64,000 nucleotides of DNA from an uncultured Candidatus Rokubacteria bacterium (GCA_963708025.1 CAVPSB010000016.1:320001-384000), one strand, 5' to 3'; shown: positions 18,905-55,892, numbered from the stretch's first letter. The notes: generated from the sequence alone by a model not told the origin. Numbers and translations are program-made.

Positions 18905-18928
18905 CTGGACCTCGCCCGGGAGGCCGCG

Positions 18929-19035
18929 CTAGTGCCGTTCCAACTTGTTCCAGCTACTGCTTTCGAGGAATGCGGCAAGTCCGTGCTTCAAGAATCGCTT
19001 GCCCATTTGGGCCCAGGTAGTTGGAACGGCACTAG
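18929..19035. mobile_element. MITE family C, copy 1
   Basis: Perfect terminal inverted repeat CTAGTGCCGTTCCAACT / AGTTGGAACGGCACTAG; second copy at 53268-53359. Confidence 0.85.
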
Positions 19036-50496: not shown

Positions 50497-51287
50497 CGGC
50501 CCGACGGTCGGGCGCCGACCGGACGCCGGGAATCCCCGAGCGGGGCGCGAGACGGGCGAGCCGGCCGCCGGAGCCGGCGGCCCCCGCCCGGGCCCTCAGC
50601 ATCCACGCTCACCCCGACGACCAGGAGTTCACCGTGGGCGGAACCCTGGCCAAGTGGGCGCGCGCCGGCAGCGAGATCGTGACCGTGTGCATCACCAGCG
50701 GCGGCGCCGGCTCCAACCAGTACACGCCGCCGCACATGACGCGCGAGGCGCTGGTCCCCGTCCGGGAGGCGGAGCAGCGCCAGGCCTGCCGCGTCCTGGG
50801 CGTCAAGGAGGTCGTGTTCCTCGGCTACGAGGACGGCCTGCTGGAGCCGTCCCTCGCCCTCCGCCGGGAGCTGACCCGCGTGATCCGCCGGTACCGTCCG
50901 GACGCGGTTCTCTGCGGCGATCCCACCGTTCGCTTCTACGGCCAGAGCTACATGAACCACCCCGACCACCGGGCGGCGGCCGACGCCGCGCTGGACGCCG
51001 TCTTCCCGTCGGCCGAGACCCGTCTCGTCTTCCCGGAGCTGCTCGAGGAGGGGCTGGCGCCCCACCACGTCCAGACGGTGTTCATCCACGGCGCGAGCCG
51101 ACCGGACACCTTCGTCAACATCGCCGACGTGCTGGACGTCAAGCTGGCCGCGCTCCGGGAGCACAAGAGCCAGATGGGGGAATGGGACCCGACTGAGATG
51201 ATCACGCTGTGGGCCCGCGAGCAGGGTCGGCGCCGCGGGCTGGCCGCCGCCGAGGCGTATCGCCGGATGGTCCTCGGCGGCCCGTAG
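50493..51287 (+). CDS. PIG-L/LmbE-family deacetylase
   Basis: HAHPDDQE, GGTLA, NHPDH, HKSQ. Confidence 0.9.
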   Translation: MTARRSGADRTPGIPERGARRASRPPEPAAPARALSIHAHPDDQEFTVGGTLAKWARAGSEIVTVCITSGGAGSNQYTPPHMTREALVPVREAEQRQACRVLGVKEVVFLGYEDGLLEPSLALRRELTRVIRRYRPDAVLCGDPTVRFYGQSYMNHPDHRAAADAALDAVFPSAETRLVFPELLEEGLAPHHVQTVFIHGASRPDTFVNIADVLDVKLAALREHKSQMGEWDPTEMITLWAREQGRRRGLAAAEAYRRMVLGGP

Positions 51288-51291
51288 CCTC

Positions 51292-52464
51292 TCAGACGCG
51301 GCGGAAATAGACGCGCGGATCCCCGTAGAAGAGATACGACGCCCAGGAGAAGTCCGTCGGCCCGGTCGCGTTCCGGCACGCCACCCGGGCGTCCCTGACC
51401 GCCCGCCCCAGCGGCTTCCCCTCGACCAGCGCCGAGTAGAACGCCTTCGCGAATGCCGCCGCCGCGGCGTCTCCCACCTGCCAGCGGTTGCCGATCAGGT
51501 AGGCGCCGGTCTCCAGGAAGGCGCGGGCCAACCCGAAGATGTCGAAGCGGTTCTTCCACTCGCCCTCGGTCTTGGCCGCCGCGGTCTCGCAGGCGTTCAT
51601 GAAGAAGAAGACCGGAGGCTTGCTTCCGAAGAACCCCATGATGGGTCCCGTGCTCATGTCGCGGTCGAAGAGCACGAGGCTGCTGAGGTGCGGCTTGTCG
51701 TTCCGGAAGTACGCGTGTCCGCTGAAGTGCACGATGTGGTAGCGGCCGCTCTTGATCGCCTTGTAGACGTCGTCGTACTTGGCCTTCGGGCCCTGCAGCA
51801 ACGACACCTTGGCGGCATCCCCCAGCGGCGCCAGCGTCTCCAGGATCGCCTGGGTCTCCGCCGCCGCCGCCGGCAAGGGGTCGTACTTCACGTTCCCGCG
51901 CGGCTGCGGCTGGGGCACGCTGATCAGCAGCACCGACAGCTGGGTCGCCCCCACCGTGGCCGCCGCCCGCTGGAGCGACGGGATCGCCGGCTTCGAGGAG
52001 TTCACGAAGCGCCCGACGAGGTGCTTGAAGCACAGGAAGTCGTCGTCGTCGTGCATCAGCTCCCACGGGTACTCGAGCAGCGCCTCGTCCATCCCGATTT
52101 CGAGGAACAGGTCGGGAGTCCGCAGCTCCCCCTGGACGTACCCCGGCATGATGAGGTTCAGGAGCTGGCCGCCGATCAGCTTGGTCTCGTCGAGGAGCGT
52201 CTCGTCCGGCGCGGCCCCGCCGGCGGCGCCGCCGCCTCGCGCATCGACCGCCACCGCCAGCTGATTCAGGCGGTCACGGATCGGCGTGAGCTCCTCGGAC
52301 CCCAGCCGCAGCTCCTCCAGCGGTGGACGGATCGTCGAGCGAAAGGGCGGGGTGTACTTCAGTCGATAGGTGTCTCCCCCCGCCCCCGGGCCCGGGCTGA
52401 ACAGCTCGACCTGGGCAGTGGCCCCCGCGAACCAGTCGATGCAGAAGCCGGTAGCCGGACTCAC
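51292..52464 (-). CDS. Stand-alone CHAT-domain (caspase-like) protease
   Basis: YPWELM, IVHFSGHA and FFMNACET His/Cys dyad, GLARAFL, FYSAL, WASYLFYGDP. Confidence 0.92.
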   Translation of the reverse strand: MSPATGFCIDWFAGATAQVELFSPGPGAGGDTYRLKYTPPFRSTIRPPLEELRLGSEELTPIRDRLNQLAVAVDARGGGAAGGAAPDETLLDETKLIGGQLLNLIMPGYVQGELRTPDLFLEIGMDEALLEYPWELMHDDDDFLCFKHLVGRFVNSSKPAIPSLQRAAATVGATQLSVLLISVPQPQPRGNVKYDPLPAAAAETQAILETLAPLGDAAKVSLLQGPKAKYDDVYKAIKSGRYHIVHFSGHAYFRNDKPHLSSLVLFDRDMSTGPIMGFFGSKPPVFFFMNACETAAAKTEGEWKNRFDIFGLARAFLETGAYLIGNRWQVGDAAAAAFAKAFYSALVEGKPLGRAVRDARVACRNATGPTDFSWASYLFYGDPRVYFRRV

Positions 52465-53249
52465 GATGCAACACCCCCTTCCATCGGCCGACTCTCCACG
52501 ACGGTCTGGACGACCGCCGGGTCGGCCACGGCCAGCTGGAAGCCTCGGCCGGCGAGCTTCGGCAGCTCGTGCTCATCCCCCAGGTGGGTCATCAGGTCCA
52601 GGTTCGTCACCGAGCCGACGTCCGAATAGAGGAAGCAGCTGGAGTTCTCGCACCGCTCCAGCCCGAGGAACTGCCCGGTGATCGACAGCCCGGCCGCTCT
52701 GACGCGATGCTTGATCGTCGAGATCCGCCCGGGATCCGGGCTTCGCCAGTACTTCGGATCGGTCGGCACCATCGAGATGACCGCGCCGCCCTCGAAGTCG
52801 TCCCAGATGATGTAGCGCCATTCGGGGGGCGGGGTGATCTCGCGGTCGGTCACGATGAAGAGCAGCCCGGAGTCCGGACCGATCCCGATCAGGTCGCGAA
52901 CCACCTGGCCCAGCTTCCGCTGGTCACACGTCCGCCGGAACCGCCCGGTCGAGTCCTTGGACGACACCGGCTTCTCCACCCGCTGCGCCGGGCTCAGCTG
53001 TGCGAGCGCGTCATCGACCGCCTTCCCGCCCCTCAGCAGCCGATCCAGGTTTCGCCGCGCCGCGTCCAGCAGGTTGATCTTGGGCACCTGGGGGGAGATG
53101 TAGAATCGCTGGAAGCTGATCCGTGGCTGGTCCATGTTGTAGAACCGCTCGATCTCGAGCAGCATTGCCCACAGCGCCGGACCGACCTCGAGGGAGGTCT
53201 CGCCATCGACCAGCAGCAGCACCTGCACGATCCGAACGGGGTCGCTCAT
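52461..53249 (-). CDS. Hypothetical protein with degenerate archaemetzincin-like C-terminus
   Basis: SITGQFLGLERCENSSCFL aligns by eye to HExxHxxGxxHCx4CxM; stop overlaps the CHAT start. Confidence 0.7.
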   Translation of the reverse strand: MSDPVRIVQVLLLVDGETSLEVGPALWAMLLEIERFYNMDQPRISFQRFYISPQVPKINLLDAARRNLDRLLRGGKAVDDALAQLSPAQRVEKPVSSKDSTGRFRRTCDQRKLGQVVRDLIGIGPDSGLLFIVTDREITPPPEWRYIIWDDFEGGAVISMVPTDPKYWRSPDPGRISTIKHRVRAAGLSITGQFLGLERCENSSCFLYSDVGSVTNLDLMTHLGDEHELPKLAGRGFQLAVADPAVVQTVVESRPMEGGVAS

Positions 53250-53267
53250 CGTCCGCTGACCTGGCGG

Positions 53268-53359
53268 CTAGTGCCGTTCCAACTTGTTCCAGCTAGTGCT
53301 TTCGAGGAACACAGTGCGCGCATCGTCTATCTTGGCTCATGTAGTTGGAACGGCACTAG
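53268..53359. mobile_element. MITE family C, copy 2
   Basis: Same 17-bp terminal inverted repeat; right CTAG overlaps the TAG stop of the M4 gene. Confidence 0.85.
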
Positions 53360-55071
53360 GAGATTCCCACCTTCGCGTACGCATCGGTGAGGGCATCGAG
53401 CTTCGGCTGGCGCTGCGCATCGCCGGCATAGTACGTGCTGGCGACGTTCCGCAGCGTCTGGAGCGTCTGCGAGAACGTGGCCAGCTTGTCGAGCCGGGTG
53501 AGGCACAGGTAGTAGAGCACGGCCGCCTCGCGCGGCGTGAAGACCGGTTGCCCCTGAGCGTCCTTCGCGCTGAGCACATTGTACGCCGCCTTGTTGTGGA
53601 TGTTGCTGTTGGTGTGCACCCCGCCGTTGTCCTGCGGCGTGTTGACGTACTGGTCCATGTGCGCGGGATCGCCGGTCCGGGTAGGGTCCCGCATGTCGCG
53701 CAGGGGAAGTCCGCCGGCCCGGAACCCGGAGCCGATCTCCCAGCTCCAGCCGTCCACCGTCCCGCCGGTGGTCGGGTTGGCCACGTCCCAGTTCTTGATG
53801 ATGATCCCGAAGATGTCGCTGAACGATTCGTTCAGCGCGCCCGATTGCCGGAGGTACACGAGGTCGGCGGTGAACTCGGTCACCCCGTGCGTCAGCTCGT
53901 GGGCGATGGCGTCGAGGTGGCGGGCGTAGCTCCGGAGGGCGCCGGTGGCGTCCCGGGCCTGGCCGTACCACATCCGCCGCCTCCACCACACGGCGTTGTG
54001 CCACTCGGGTGGCGCTTCCTCAGCCGGCACCGTGCAGTTCACGTAGGAGACGAGCTCCATGCCCTTGTCGTCGACCCCGTCCCGCAGCAGCACCGACTTG
54101 TAGAAGTCGAAGACGCGCATCGCATTGACATGGGCCGAGACCGCCGGCGCATTCTTGAACTCGCTCGACGGCCCGCCGATCGGCTCGGCCGGCGGCGGGG
54201 TGGTGTCCACGTCGTTCAATCCGAAGTCGAACGTCCGGATTCCCCGGATCGGGTCGCTCATCTCGAACGCGGCGCCGTTCTTGCGGCCCCAGAACACCTG
54301 GGTCGCTCCGTCCTCGTCGGCGCCCCGGCACTGACTGGGGATCTCCAGGGTCGGCGCCGCGCTCCAGTAGAGGAGCACCGCGCCGTCGTGGGCGTCCACG
54401 AGATAGTTGACCTCGGGATGCCGCTGGGCCAGCGAGCGACCGAGCCCGTGACTCCGCGTCGCTTCGAGAAAGCCGGGCGGCGCCGCCGGCACGTTCCGGA
54501 AGAAGTAGACGAGGTGCCACTGGTCCGACCCGTCGTCGTGGTAGTAGGTGAGCTCCGGAGGCTCCACGCCCTCCAGCGTCGCCTCGGCGACCTTCGCCAG
54601 CGTCGCGATGCGGCTCCGGGCATGGGCGGCGCCCAGCGCGGCGATGGGTGACGCGTTCTTGACCTCGGCGAGCTCGGCGTCGACCGAGAGGAGCTCACGG
54701 TTTCGGTCCAGCTCGACCACGGCCCGGGAGCCGAAGACGGGGATCGTCGCCTTGGTCTGGACGAAGCGCACCGTCCAGGTGCCGGTCAACGGTGAGCGCT
54801 GGCTGTCGCGCAGCCGCATGTCGGGAACCACCTCGGGACGCTCGGGCGCGGTCAGTCCCCGCAGCGACGGCCGAGTGTCCCGCCCGAACAGCTGGCTCAG
54901 ATAGAAGCGCGCGGCCGCCTCTTCGCTGTTGAAGCCGGGCGCCGCCTCGGCGGCCCCGGCCCGGGCCGGCCCCCCGCCGCGGAGCGCGAGAGGTCGCGCG
55001 CCCACCGCCTGCAGATCGTGGTCTTCCCGGTCGGCGACGTTGAAGTGGATGCTGTGGAAGCCGGTGGCCAT
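53356..55071 (-). CDS. M4 (thermolysin-family) metalloprotease with propeptide, no signal peptide
   Basis: NAVW, AHELTHGV, SGALNESFSD, DNGGVHTNS..NKAAY; hydrophilic N-terminus. Confidence 0.93.
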   Translation of the reverse strand: MATGFHSIHFNVADREDHDLQAVGARPLALRGGGPARAGAAEAAPGFNSEEAAARFYLSQLFGRDTRPSLRGLTAPERPEVVPDMRLRDSQRSPLTGTWTVRFVQTKATIPVFGSRAVVELDRNRELLSVDAELAEVKNASPIAALGAAHARSRIATLAKVAEATLEGVEPPELTYYHDDGSDQWHLVYFFRNVPAAPPGFLEATRSHGLGRSLAQRHPEVNYLVDAHDGAVLLYWSAAPTLEIPSQCRGADEDGATQVFWGRKNGAAFEMSDPIRGIRTFDFGLNDVDTTPPPAEPIGGPSSEFKNAPAVSAHVNAMRVFDFYKSVLLRDGVDDKGMELVSYVNCTVPAEEAPPEWHNAVWWRRRMWYGQARDATGALRSYARHLDAIAHELTHGVTEFTADLVYLRQSGALNESFSDIFGIIIKNWDVANPTTGGTVDGWSWEIGSGFRAGGLPLRDMRDPTRTGDPAHMDQYVNTPQDNGGVHTNSNIHNKAAYNVLSAKDAQGQPVFTPREAAVLYYLCLTRLDKLATFSQTLQTLRNVASTYYAGDAQRQPKLDALTDAYAKVGIS

Positions 55072-55132
55072 CACTGTCTCTCCCTCGGGTCGCCACGCAT
55101 CGGCGCGCCGCCCCGCGGCTCGCACCCCGACG

Positions 55133-55711
55133 TTATCGCGTGCTCCGGACCGGCCGGCCCAGGATCGGTCCCACCGCCCTCGGCGTCGTCGCGGCCACAC
55201 CCCTCGGGCCGTGTGGGGTCCGACAGCCCGTCATGGGGGCCACCAGCACCTGGAGGAACATGTCGGCCGAATCCGTGACCAGACCGGTGCTGACGAGGAG
55301 GGCCACGTCGCCGCCGGCCGCCGCCCGGGTGATGGCGAACCGCAAGCGACGATCGAGGCCGCTGCTCGCCGGTGTCCAGGGAATCTGGCTGCCGTCCCCC
55401 ACCAGGTAGCTGGCCTGGACCGGCACGCCCTCCGGATCGGCATTGAACCGGTCGAGCTGCGCGAGCAGCTCGTCGAGCGTCTGGGGGAGAATCTCGCGTC
55501 TCAGGACGAGCGTGGCCAGGGGATCGTTCAGCCACTGGGCCGTCTCGGCGGGCGTCATCGGGCACGGCGCGTCGTCGAGCCCGAGCACGAACCGGTAGAG
55601 CCGGCCCGCCTCCAGGACGTATCCGTCACGGGCCGCCGCGAGCCCCGCGTAACGGGTCGGGAACGACCGGGACGCCCGGGGCGGAGGCGTCGCGAAGCTC
55701 GATCGGGTCAT
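55133..55711 (-). CDS. Hypothetical protein, probably 3'-truncated
   Basis: Protein-like, GC3-rich to ..MFLQVL (~55240), then low-complexity tail; first gene after the promoter. Confidence 0.6.
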   Translation of the reverse strand: MTRSSFATPPPRASRSFPTRYAGLAAARDGYVLEAGRLYRFVLGLDDAPCPMTPAETAQWLNDPLATLVLRREILPQTLDELLAQLDRFNADPEGVPVQASYLVGDGSQIPWTPASSGLDRRLRFAITRAAAGGDVALLVSTGLVTDSADMFLQVLVAPMTGCRTPHGPRGVAATTPRAVGPILGRPVRSTR

Positions 55712-55844
55712 CGGCCCGCCCGAGCGGCCCGACCGTCGACCGGGTCGAGGCCATTCGGCCCGACTCTACCGTCTTCGACCGTGCGACCGCTCACCGCGAC
55801 CCGCCATCCGACCGGAACGAGACGGCAGTCCCGGCCACGTCCGC

Positions 55845-55892
55845 ACACTAGAGCGAGGCCGAGAGGCCGTCAAGTGTATCCAAATGGATACA
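55845..55892 (-). promoter_or_regulatory. Sigma70-type promoter with adjacent palindromic site
   Basis: TTGACG (55873-68)-N17-TAGTGT (55850-45); TGTATCCA-N2-TGGATACA at 55875-55892. Confidence 0.7.

Follow-up and report, generated by a model that had tools for sequence, protein, structure and literature searches.

What a bacterium would do with three protease folds encoded side by side, none of them apparently carrying an export signal, is the question raised by a locus of an uncultured Candidatus Rokubacteria bacterium (GCA_963708025.1, CAVPSB010000016.1:320001-384000). We analysed this stretch of 64 000 nucleotides, here called the window, counting coordinates from its first letter. The genes at issue are three co-oriented minus-strand genes that together form a cassette of 3.8 kb in a region of about 70% G+C, encoding, from 5′ to 3′, an M4 protease, a pseudo-archaemetzincin (hereafter pseudo-M54) and a CHAT protease:

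53356–55071, minus strand: M4 (thermolysin-family) zymogen, 571 residues, leaderless, with a conserved N-terminal extension of about 45 residues, an FTP-containing propeptide and a catalytic domain (from Pfam and alignment)
52461–53249, minus strand: pseudo-archaemetzincin (M54 fold, by its residues dead as a metzincin), 262 residues, of an undescribed family (from fold matches of an AlphaFold2 model and profile alignment)
51292–52464, minus strand: stand-alone CHAT (clan CD, caspase-like) protease, 390 residues, with a family-specific N-domain of about 75 residues, a disordered Gly/Ala-rich linker and the CHAT domain (from Pfam)

A cassette of three genes

The trio is a conserved, self-contained three-gene cassette. 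The order M4, pseudo-M54, CHAT recurs in loci from other organisms, of which we collected 21, with G+C contents of 42–71%; three came from a collection of genomes of 185 579 species and 18 from metagenome contigs, all found by pattern scans for pseudo-M54; the pattern used on the genome collection would, as estimated from column counts, catch well under half of the family members. The three genome loci lie in metagenome-assembled genomes (MAGs) of an alphaproteobacterium, a member of the Hyphomicrobiales and a member of the Isosphaeraceae, with M4 and CHAT confirmed by Pfam in each, and the host range takes in at least Alphaproteobacteria and Planctomycetota. With the window proteins as tblastn queries, M4 adjoined the pseudo-M54 gene wherever the contig reached upstream (19 of 19 loci), lying directly upstream on the same strand in 18 and divergently in the other (L005). 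Seventeen loci had a contig extending beyond the pseudo-M54 gene by more than some 60 nt, and in 16 of them CHAT was the next gene downstream. With starts assigned by our own heuristic, the pseudo-M54 stop and CHAT start overlapped by 1–8 nt in 15 of 17 loci. In the window, where all three reading frames are intact, the TGA that ends pseudo-M54 and the GTG that starts CHAT overlap in the sequence GTGA (52461–52464), preceded by the Shine–Dalgarno-like run GGAAGGGGG.

All-against-all clustering of open reading frames (ORFs) of at least 70 residues, from the 21 loci and 24 kb of the window, revealed no fourth shared family; the other clusters held either shadow frames of these genes or genes common to the near-identical pair L002/L009. 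Pairwise identities of M4, pseudo-M54 and CHAT co-varied across 10 loci (Spearman coefficients 0.80, 0.56 and 0.49; Pearson values were inflated by the L002/L009 duplicate). With that pair left out, pseudo-M54 showed 31–59% identity, compared with 43–68% for M4, and by this measure it is the fastest-evolving of the three. A preliminary description, made from the window sequence alone, had proposed a four-gene operon and had set recurrence in unrelated taxa beforehand as its test; the 21 loci bear this out strongly for three of the genes, and the fourth does not recur. Its remark that no substrate or effector gene is evident holds, because no fourth gene is conserved across the loci.

Two fused forms were also found, each a single observation on one contig: P0144 (449 residues) carries a short CHAT domain (Pfam, 7.3e-08) ahead of pseudo-M54, and P0103 (571 residues) carries the M4 catalytic part in the same place. 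If real, they hint at a physical partnership of the pseudo-enzyme with both proteases; a search for longer fused pseudo-M54 forms gave P0103 only, which is weak evidence.

The cassette is rare among relatives of its host. A pseudo-M54 profile run against 61 related genomes (20 of the same family and 40 of the same order) found the window's own genome only, and among 251 genomes of the phylum it again found that one and none of the 250 others, an absence limited by incomplete genomes. Because pseudo-M54 was not found in these 250, the cassette looks horizontally acquired, and it is probably an accessory, mobile element. Its G+C content in the window, 0.66–0.69, is 3–8 points below that of the flanks (0.72–0.76), and a fragment of an rve integrase core lies just downstream of the cassette in L004.

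The proteins of the cassette

The long M4 ORF spans 53356–55200. We placed the start at ATG 55071, because GAGGGAGAG precedes this codon and because the resulting N-terminus, M-x3-F-x-S-I-H-F, is common to all 12 complete relatives, which begin 3–6 residues before the conserved F-x-S-I-H-F strand. The protein matched the Pfam models Peptidase_M4 (1.3e-22; 81.3 bits, cut-off 22.4), Peptidase_M4_C (2.5e-34; 119 bits, cut-off 24.4) and FTP (2.7e-05), and 24 relatives were found in the PDB, the best being of the thermolysin/neutral protease type (4.6e-35); 2vqx, which we take to be the protealysin structure, was matched more weakly (1.4e-24). Residues 101–558 align to pro-thermolysin (5a3y), so that a full propeptide is present; a further 45 or so N-terminal residues ahead of the propeptide are conserved in the family. 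The catalytic set is invariant in the 12 complete relatives: HELTH at 391–395 (H391, E392 and H395), N414, E415, S416, D419 and H486, the last presumably equivalent to His231 of thermolysin. R31 is likewise invariant (12 of 12), and an unconserved stretch rich in Gly, Ala and Pro comes next.

A secretion signal before the propeptide is usual in the M4 family, without defining it. A crude Kyte–Doolittle scan found neither a leader nor a membrane stretch in 12 M4 proteins (maximum 12-residue hydropathy ≤0.92 in the first 60 residues), and the same held for 14 pseudo-M54 and 15 CHAT proteins. Loss of the calcium-site ligands of thermolysin was considered as a further sign of a cytosolic enzyme and dropped, as the replacing residues are unconserved.

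The 262-residue protein had no match in Pfam (E ≤ 0.1), the archaemetzincin model PF07998 included, or in NCBIfam or PADLOC. A word-indexed search gave 17 homologues, whose alignment has 27 invariant positions, and when 1.84 billion representatives were searched exhaustively with the profile, 218 proteins scored at E ≤ 0.001, 163 of them at E ≤ 1e-30; the family, undescribed and without a model in Pfam or NCBIfam, comprises about 218 representative clusters. Against the PDB, the profile had only three matches, all archaemetzincin-type and weak (E 0.15 to 1.4), aligned on the active-site helix. The alignment-based AlphaFold2 model (predicted local distance difference test, pLDDT, 88.9; predicted template-modelling score, pTM, 0.88) had archaemetzincins as its top five PDB fold matches, among them 3lmc (1.7e-6), 2x7m (3.2e-6), 3zvs and 4axq, with E 1.7e-6 to 4.1e-4, probability 1.00 and template-modelling (TM) scores on the target of 0.63–0.67. 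Look-alikes in the ESM Atlas include Peptidase_M54 clusters at 0.90–0.92, ranked after unnamed clusters that are probably the pseudo-M54 family itself. The sole PDB match of the single sequence, a designed repeat protein (E 0.049), was taken as chance.

In fold, then, pseudo-M54 resembles the archaemetzincins (M54: AmzA, human AMZ1/2), with which it also shares a segment GL.(H/R)C.N..C; unlike them, it has lost the three His ligands and the catalytic Glu, carries about 70–100 extra residues and is paired with M4 and CHAT. The archaemetzincin motif H-E-x-x-H-x-x-G-x-x-H-C reads S-I-x-G-x-x-x-G-x-x-R-C in the family alignment, and the window protein has S-I-x-x-Q...R at the positions aligned to HExxHxxGxxH. 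Across 143 near-full-length relatives the three His positions are occupied by S/C/A, E/S/A and R and the Glu position by V/I/A, never by H/E/H/H, and an HExxH at the catalytic site is absent from all 164 family proteins, the motif's only two occurrences lying elsewhere, at the second residue of P0074 and within the M4 portion fused in P0103. Because H/E/H/H is replaced in every member examined, the family is, to judge from its residues, dead as a metzincin throughout, with half of the second zinc site kept. That site, in archaemetzincins, is formed by four Cys, C-x4-C ... C-x-x-C (a motif partly visible in the profile alignment); in pseudo-M54 its first two Cys, C200 and C205, are retained, and a conserved G224-x-E226-H227 stands in place of the CxxC knuckle. 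C200, C205 and W168 are present in 143 of 143 relatives, H227 in 142 and E226 in 136, and this Cys2-His-Glu cluster is a candidate for a remodelled metal site. The family also offers a way into what the archaemetzincin fold does, which is poorly understood.

The CHAT gene product matched Pfam CHAT at 1.8e-35 (123.3 bits, cut-off 24), and all 15 relatives compared share H246, H250 and C292, H250/C292 being the dyad. Its AlphaFold2 model has a pLDDT of 81.4, with residues 78–83 below 50 (modelled as disordered), and its best fold match is Csx29 (5.7e-13), others being separase, SAVED-CHAT (8tl0), gingipain R and DdvA. A search for the N-terminal domain of about 75 residues returned 14 proteins only, each a CHAT protein of 386–402 residues with the same architecture; R76 is invariant (15 of 15), and here too an unconserved Gly/Ala/Pro-rich stretch comes next. 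Prediction of a CHAT/pseudo-M54 complex gave an ipSAE of 0.00 in two runs, made without controls. In one subclade (L016:2155-3819 and L018:730-2376), CHAT bears a C-terminal extension of about 160 residues, acidic and of low complexity and then helical, that has no counterpart in other members.

The three folds named in the preliminary description are thus confirmed, M4 and CHAT by Pfam and M54 by PDB profile and model fold matches; the M4 HExxH/NESxSD motifs and the CHAT His/Cys dyad proved intact, as it had stated, and the hydropathy scans agree with its view that none of the three proteases has a signal peptide. From these features, M4 and CHAT both look catalytically competent and cytosolic, and pseudo-M54 likewise appears to remain in the cytoplasm.

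A possible latent protease cascade and its alternatives

A thermolysin-type enzyme in the cytoplasm is dangerous, and CHAT proteases are switches that cut specific partners. The reading that we tentatively put forward, as possible rather than probable, is that the cassette encodes a latent intracellular protease cascade, with pseudo-M54 as its regulator, used in conflict or cell death; the preliminary description had likewise suggested a proteolytic cascade or a module for conflict, in which the pseudo-enzyme might serve as adaptor or inhibitor. M4, made as a latent zymogen, would be the destructive output, or executioner. CHAT would be the switch, a licensing protease that may cut after the invariant Arg residues, R31 of M4 and R76 of CHAT itself. 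Pseudo-M54, produced in step with CHAT by way of the overlapping stop and start codons, would be the regulatory subunit, silencing both proteases as inhibitor, adaptor or sensor until a trigger arrives, and the role would most likely be conflict or abortive infection, or some other regulated self-destruction. We propose CHAT licensing followed by M4 execution because of the RhpP and SAVED-CHAT precedents described below and because each invariant Arg stands before a Gly/Ala/Pro-rich stretch; the presence of gingipain R among the CHAT fold matches also speaks for Arg as the candidate site.

Excerpts of the report on RhpP (PMC6490944) describe a leaderless M4 enzyme that stops the growth of E. 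coli via its active site, together with a downstream-encoded partner, RhpC, that binds RhpP, blocks its activity and relieves its toxicity, and that is required for the signal-peptide-independent transfer of RhpP to the periplasm. SAVED-CHAT, of a type III-B CRISPR/CBASS hybrid, cleaves and activates a second protease, PCaspase, in a set that includes an inhibitor protein and has an abortive phenotype, according to excerpts of its report (bioRxiv 10.1101/2023.06.23.546230). The cassette is like this hybrid in encoding CHAT beside a second protease, and in the CHAT fold match to 8tl0. It differs in lacking both a CRISPR context and a nucleotide-sensor domain, SAVED or other; its second protease is a zinc M4 zymogen rather than a caspase-like enzyme, its third protein is a dead M54 fold, and it is known here from sequence alone. 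The best structural match of the cassette CHAT is to TPR-CHAT (Csx29) of the type III-E Craspase; in contrast to that system, the cassette has neither a TPR domain nor Cas7-11, and, unlike both Craspase and SAVED-CHAT, it shows only CHAT in Pfam and has no conserved Cas or CBASS partner beyond the three genes. Bacterial gasdermin–protease operons differ in that no gasdermin gene accompanies the cassette at the loci scanned (no gasdermin domain among 38 neighbour proteins in a Pfam scan, and no shared fourth ORF in the clustering).

The preliminary description did not recognise the combination as a named system. This stands in so far as full-text literature searches, which did not cover supplementary tables, found no published description of the trio, with the qualification that PADLOC gave one weak, partial match, of CHAT to BovA of Borvo (2.1e-08, 31.7 bits; residues 203–365 on profile positions 510–668, or 159 of 711). 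The cassette CHAT, unlike BovA, is half the size and has an N-domain of its own. The cassette belongs with the multi-protease, CHAT-based modules, and the pseudo-enzyme family within it is undescribed. Multi-protease cascades were long held to be a eukaryotic speciality, and bacterial examples are few; if the proposal is true, the cassette adds a bacterial cascade mixing a zinc M4 and a cysteine CHAT protease with a dedicated pseudo-enzyme.

For a role in conflict, we would cite the apparent mobility of the cassette, its rarity, its self-contained toxic potential and one locus, L020. There, three co-oriented genes directly upstream of the cassette (L020:716-5896) encode a 951-residue protein with no family match, a metallo-β-lactamase (MBL)-fold protein that PADLOC matches to LmuA (4.4e-58) and Avs1a (1.4e-34), and a patatin-like phospholipase; the three may be a defence-type set of their own.

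Several observations weigh against this reading. L020 is the only one of eight loci with annotated flanks to have defence-like neighbours; at the seven others, the flanking genes have metabolic or housekeeping functions (alkyl sulfatase, glutathione S-transferase, UvrB, LodA, histidine kinase/EAL, M28 peptidase, ABC transporter, hydantoinase). Among viral contigs there were 12 pattern matches, none of them a relative. Pfam found no SAVED, TPR, NACHT or TIR sensor domain, PADLOC has no model for M4 or pseudo-M54, and two loci look decayed, M4 being 5′-truncated in L019, and pseudo-M54 lying in two pieces in L021 with no CHAT in the remaining 900 nt or so. The direction of the cascade is a guess, and the order may be reversed; the Arg-site pattern comes from only 12 M4 and 15 CHAT sequences; and the link between the genes appears from comparative evidence rather than from experiment or transcript.

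A narrower form of the cascade, which we hold to be unlikely though worth stating, is a new class of cell-death or anti-phage switch, complete in itself and built of protease folds only, in which a compact, Arg-directed CHAT would license a cytosolic thermolysin-type zymogen and the dead archaemetzincin, with its remodelled Cys2-His-Glu metal site, would serve as sensor or safety catch. Were it true, the M54 fold would gain its first assigned role in bacteria, and a thermolysin zymogen would for the first time be an intracellular executioner. The cascade proposal in general is directly testable in a laboratory host, because the cassette is only 3.8 kb long, has no other required partner by the comparative evidence and has clear catalytic residues.

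The main rival to the cascade is that M4 and pseudo-M54 are a protease and its dedicated cytoplasmic inhibitor or escort, of the protealysin/emfourin or RhpP/RhpC type, with CHAT added as maturase or inhibitor remover. The leaderless M4 would then act outside the cytoplasm or on few targets, pseudo-M54 would hold it inactive and/or escort it, and the role would be a physiological one, in nutrition, regulation or interaction with other organisms. We find this doubtful, in spite of a clear likeness in layout, an M4 enzyme without a signal peptide being followed in both cases by the gene for a non-enzymatic partner. The pseudo-M54 gene is directly 3′ of M4 in 18 of 19 loci and once fused to it, and the flanks are mostly non-defence genes; the RhpC gene lies directly downstream of that for leaderless RhpP, which RhpC inhibits and escorts (PMC6490944, in excerpts), and protealysin is described as an intracellular M4 enzyme (PMC9505478, in excerpts). 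However, RhpP, in the same excerpts (PMC6490944), is without the long FTP-type propeptide that M4 retains here, and the partner is a 262-residue metzincin-fold pseudo-enzyme instead of an inhibitor of about 11 kDa. The cassette M4 also stands nearer to thermolysin/neutral protease than to 2vqx. In secreted M4 enzymes, an FTP-type propeptide is already an inhibitor or chaperone. The tightest coupling, moreover, is between pseudo-M54 and CHAT, M4 being divergent in L005 while the pseudo-M54 gene keeps its place, and an inhibitor/escort pair leaves unexplained why a caspase-like protease with a special N-domain is constantly present as an obligatory third member.

That the cassette is instead a housekeeping or developmental module of regulated proteolysis in soil bacteria, serving starvation, differentiation or turnover with no part in conflict, strikes us as distinctly improbable. 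CHAT proteases do include developmental factors, the sole NCBIfam match of the cassette CHAT, far below the cut-off, is to HetF, the neighbours are metabolic, and the runs that hold window sequence are mostly labelled as soil metagenomes. Yet the distribution is extremely patchy for such a role, with one of 251 genomes of the phylum and three loci in the pattern scan of the 185 579-species collection, and the spread across phyla and the shift in G+C favour an accessory, mobile function. It is scarcely credible that the three genes adjoin by chance, or are a decaying remnant and share no function. Signs of damage appear in two or three of the 21 loci (L019 and L021), and the window copy has a repeat element in a spacer and a broken upstream neighbour, but over the whole range of G+C the gene arrangement holds for M4 in 18 of 19 loci and for CHAT in 16 of 17, the catalytic and many other residues are invariant, the window frames are intact and the three proteins diverge in a correlated way, so that the conservation data effectively refute it. 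We note of L019 (L019:1-2200) that only the last 137 M4 residues are present, joined in frame to an unrelated membrane-protein gene, which would fit a decayed cassette or a chimeric contig. In the Isosphaeraceae MAG (L003), the cassette has a gene with an L-lysine epsilon-oxidase (LodA) domain on either side, at L003:3738-5378 and L003:10573-11553.

The upstream fragment, the repeat and the flanks

Three further features lie in the region:

53268–53359, no strand assigned: 92-nt dispersed repeat in the spacer between M4 and pseudo-M54, resembling a miniature inverted-repeat transposable element (MITE) or repetitive extragenic palindromic (REP) sequence (from inverted repeats and genome matches)
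55133–55711, minus strand: gene 1 ORF, 192 residues, the 5′ fragment of a 540-residue family of unknown function (from paralogue alignment)
55845–55873, minus strand: promoter-like TTGACG-17 nt-TAGTGT upstream of the gene 1 fragment (read by eye)

Gene 1 had no match in Pfam, NCBIfam or PADLOC, and a single-sequence PDB search gave nothing meaningful. Its residues 6–156 are 40% identical to residues 2–155 of a 540-residue paralogue on another contig of the genome (L024:1495-3117), a family that has no Pfam or PADLOC match; the match stops abruptly at FLQV, at window position 55244, leaving a tail of 36 residues without a match. At exactly 55243/55244, contigs from runs X1, X2 and X19 cease to match the window, and a 7.6-kb contig of X2, about 96–97% identical over the cassette, has some 2.19 kb extra between 55244 and 55243, which suggests either a deletion in the window strain or an assembly collapse at this point. 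No counterpart of gene 1 was found in the 21 cassette loci or in 40 relatives, and we ruled it out as a fourth member of the cassette: it is a 5′ fragment of an unrelated family. Of the four-gene operon of the preliminary description there remain, therefore, three co-oriented genes with their GTGA overlap. The single promoter assigned to it has to be given up, as TTGACG-17-TAGTGT (55873–55845) belongs to the gene 1 fragment, and a consensus promoter scan reported 0 sites.

The 92-nt element has 17-nt perfect terminal inverted repeats and 31 matches, at about 75% identity, across contigs of the window's own genome; because these are spread over the contigs, the window contig is not contamination. 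It has no Rfam family, it folds as RNA at −42.4 kcal/mol (z −2.6), and it could form a hairpin inside an operon transcript. At the corresponding site of the X2 contig it is missing, 99 nt being replaced by 11, and the element, which looks MITE- or REP-like, is not a conserved part of the cassette. A second copy of the dispersed repeat (about 92–105 nt) lies at about 18928–19033 of the window.

A terminator scan of the region gave one weak site, inside CHAT, no more than shuffled sequence yields, and an Rfam scan gave only a sub-threshold match to small RNA P5 (55387–55473; 27.9 bits, gathering score 60), taken as chance. The only clearly RNA-labelled run, X20, gave a single contig of 297 nt that is 100% identical to 51255–51551, that is, the 3′ end of CHAT and the end of the convergent gene; its strand is not readable and DNA carry-over is possible, hence it is not evidence of co-transcription, X19 counts as RNA by guess only, and stretches uncovered in either run carry no meaning.

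The four minus-strand ORFs of the region, gene 1 included, are bounded by a convergent PIG-L deacetylase gene at one end and a DAO oxidoreductase/hydantoinase cluster at the other. The flanking genes are unrelated and metabolic, as the preliminary description had it, with the DAO oxidoreductase and hydantoinase A/B on one side and PIG-L, a luciferase-like monooxygenase and a dienelactone hydrolase on the other.

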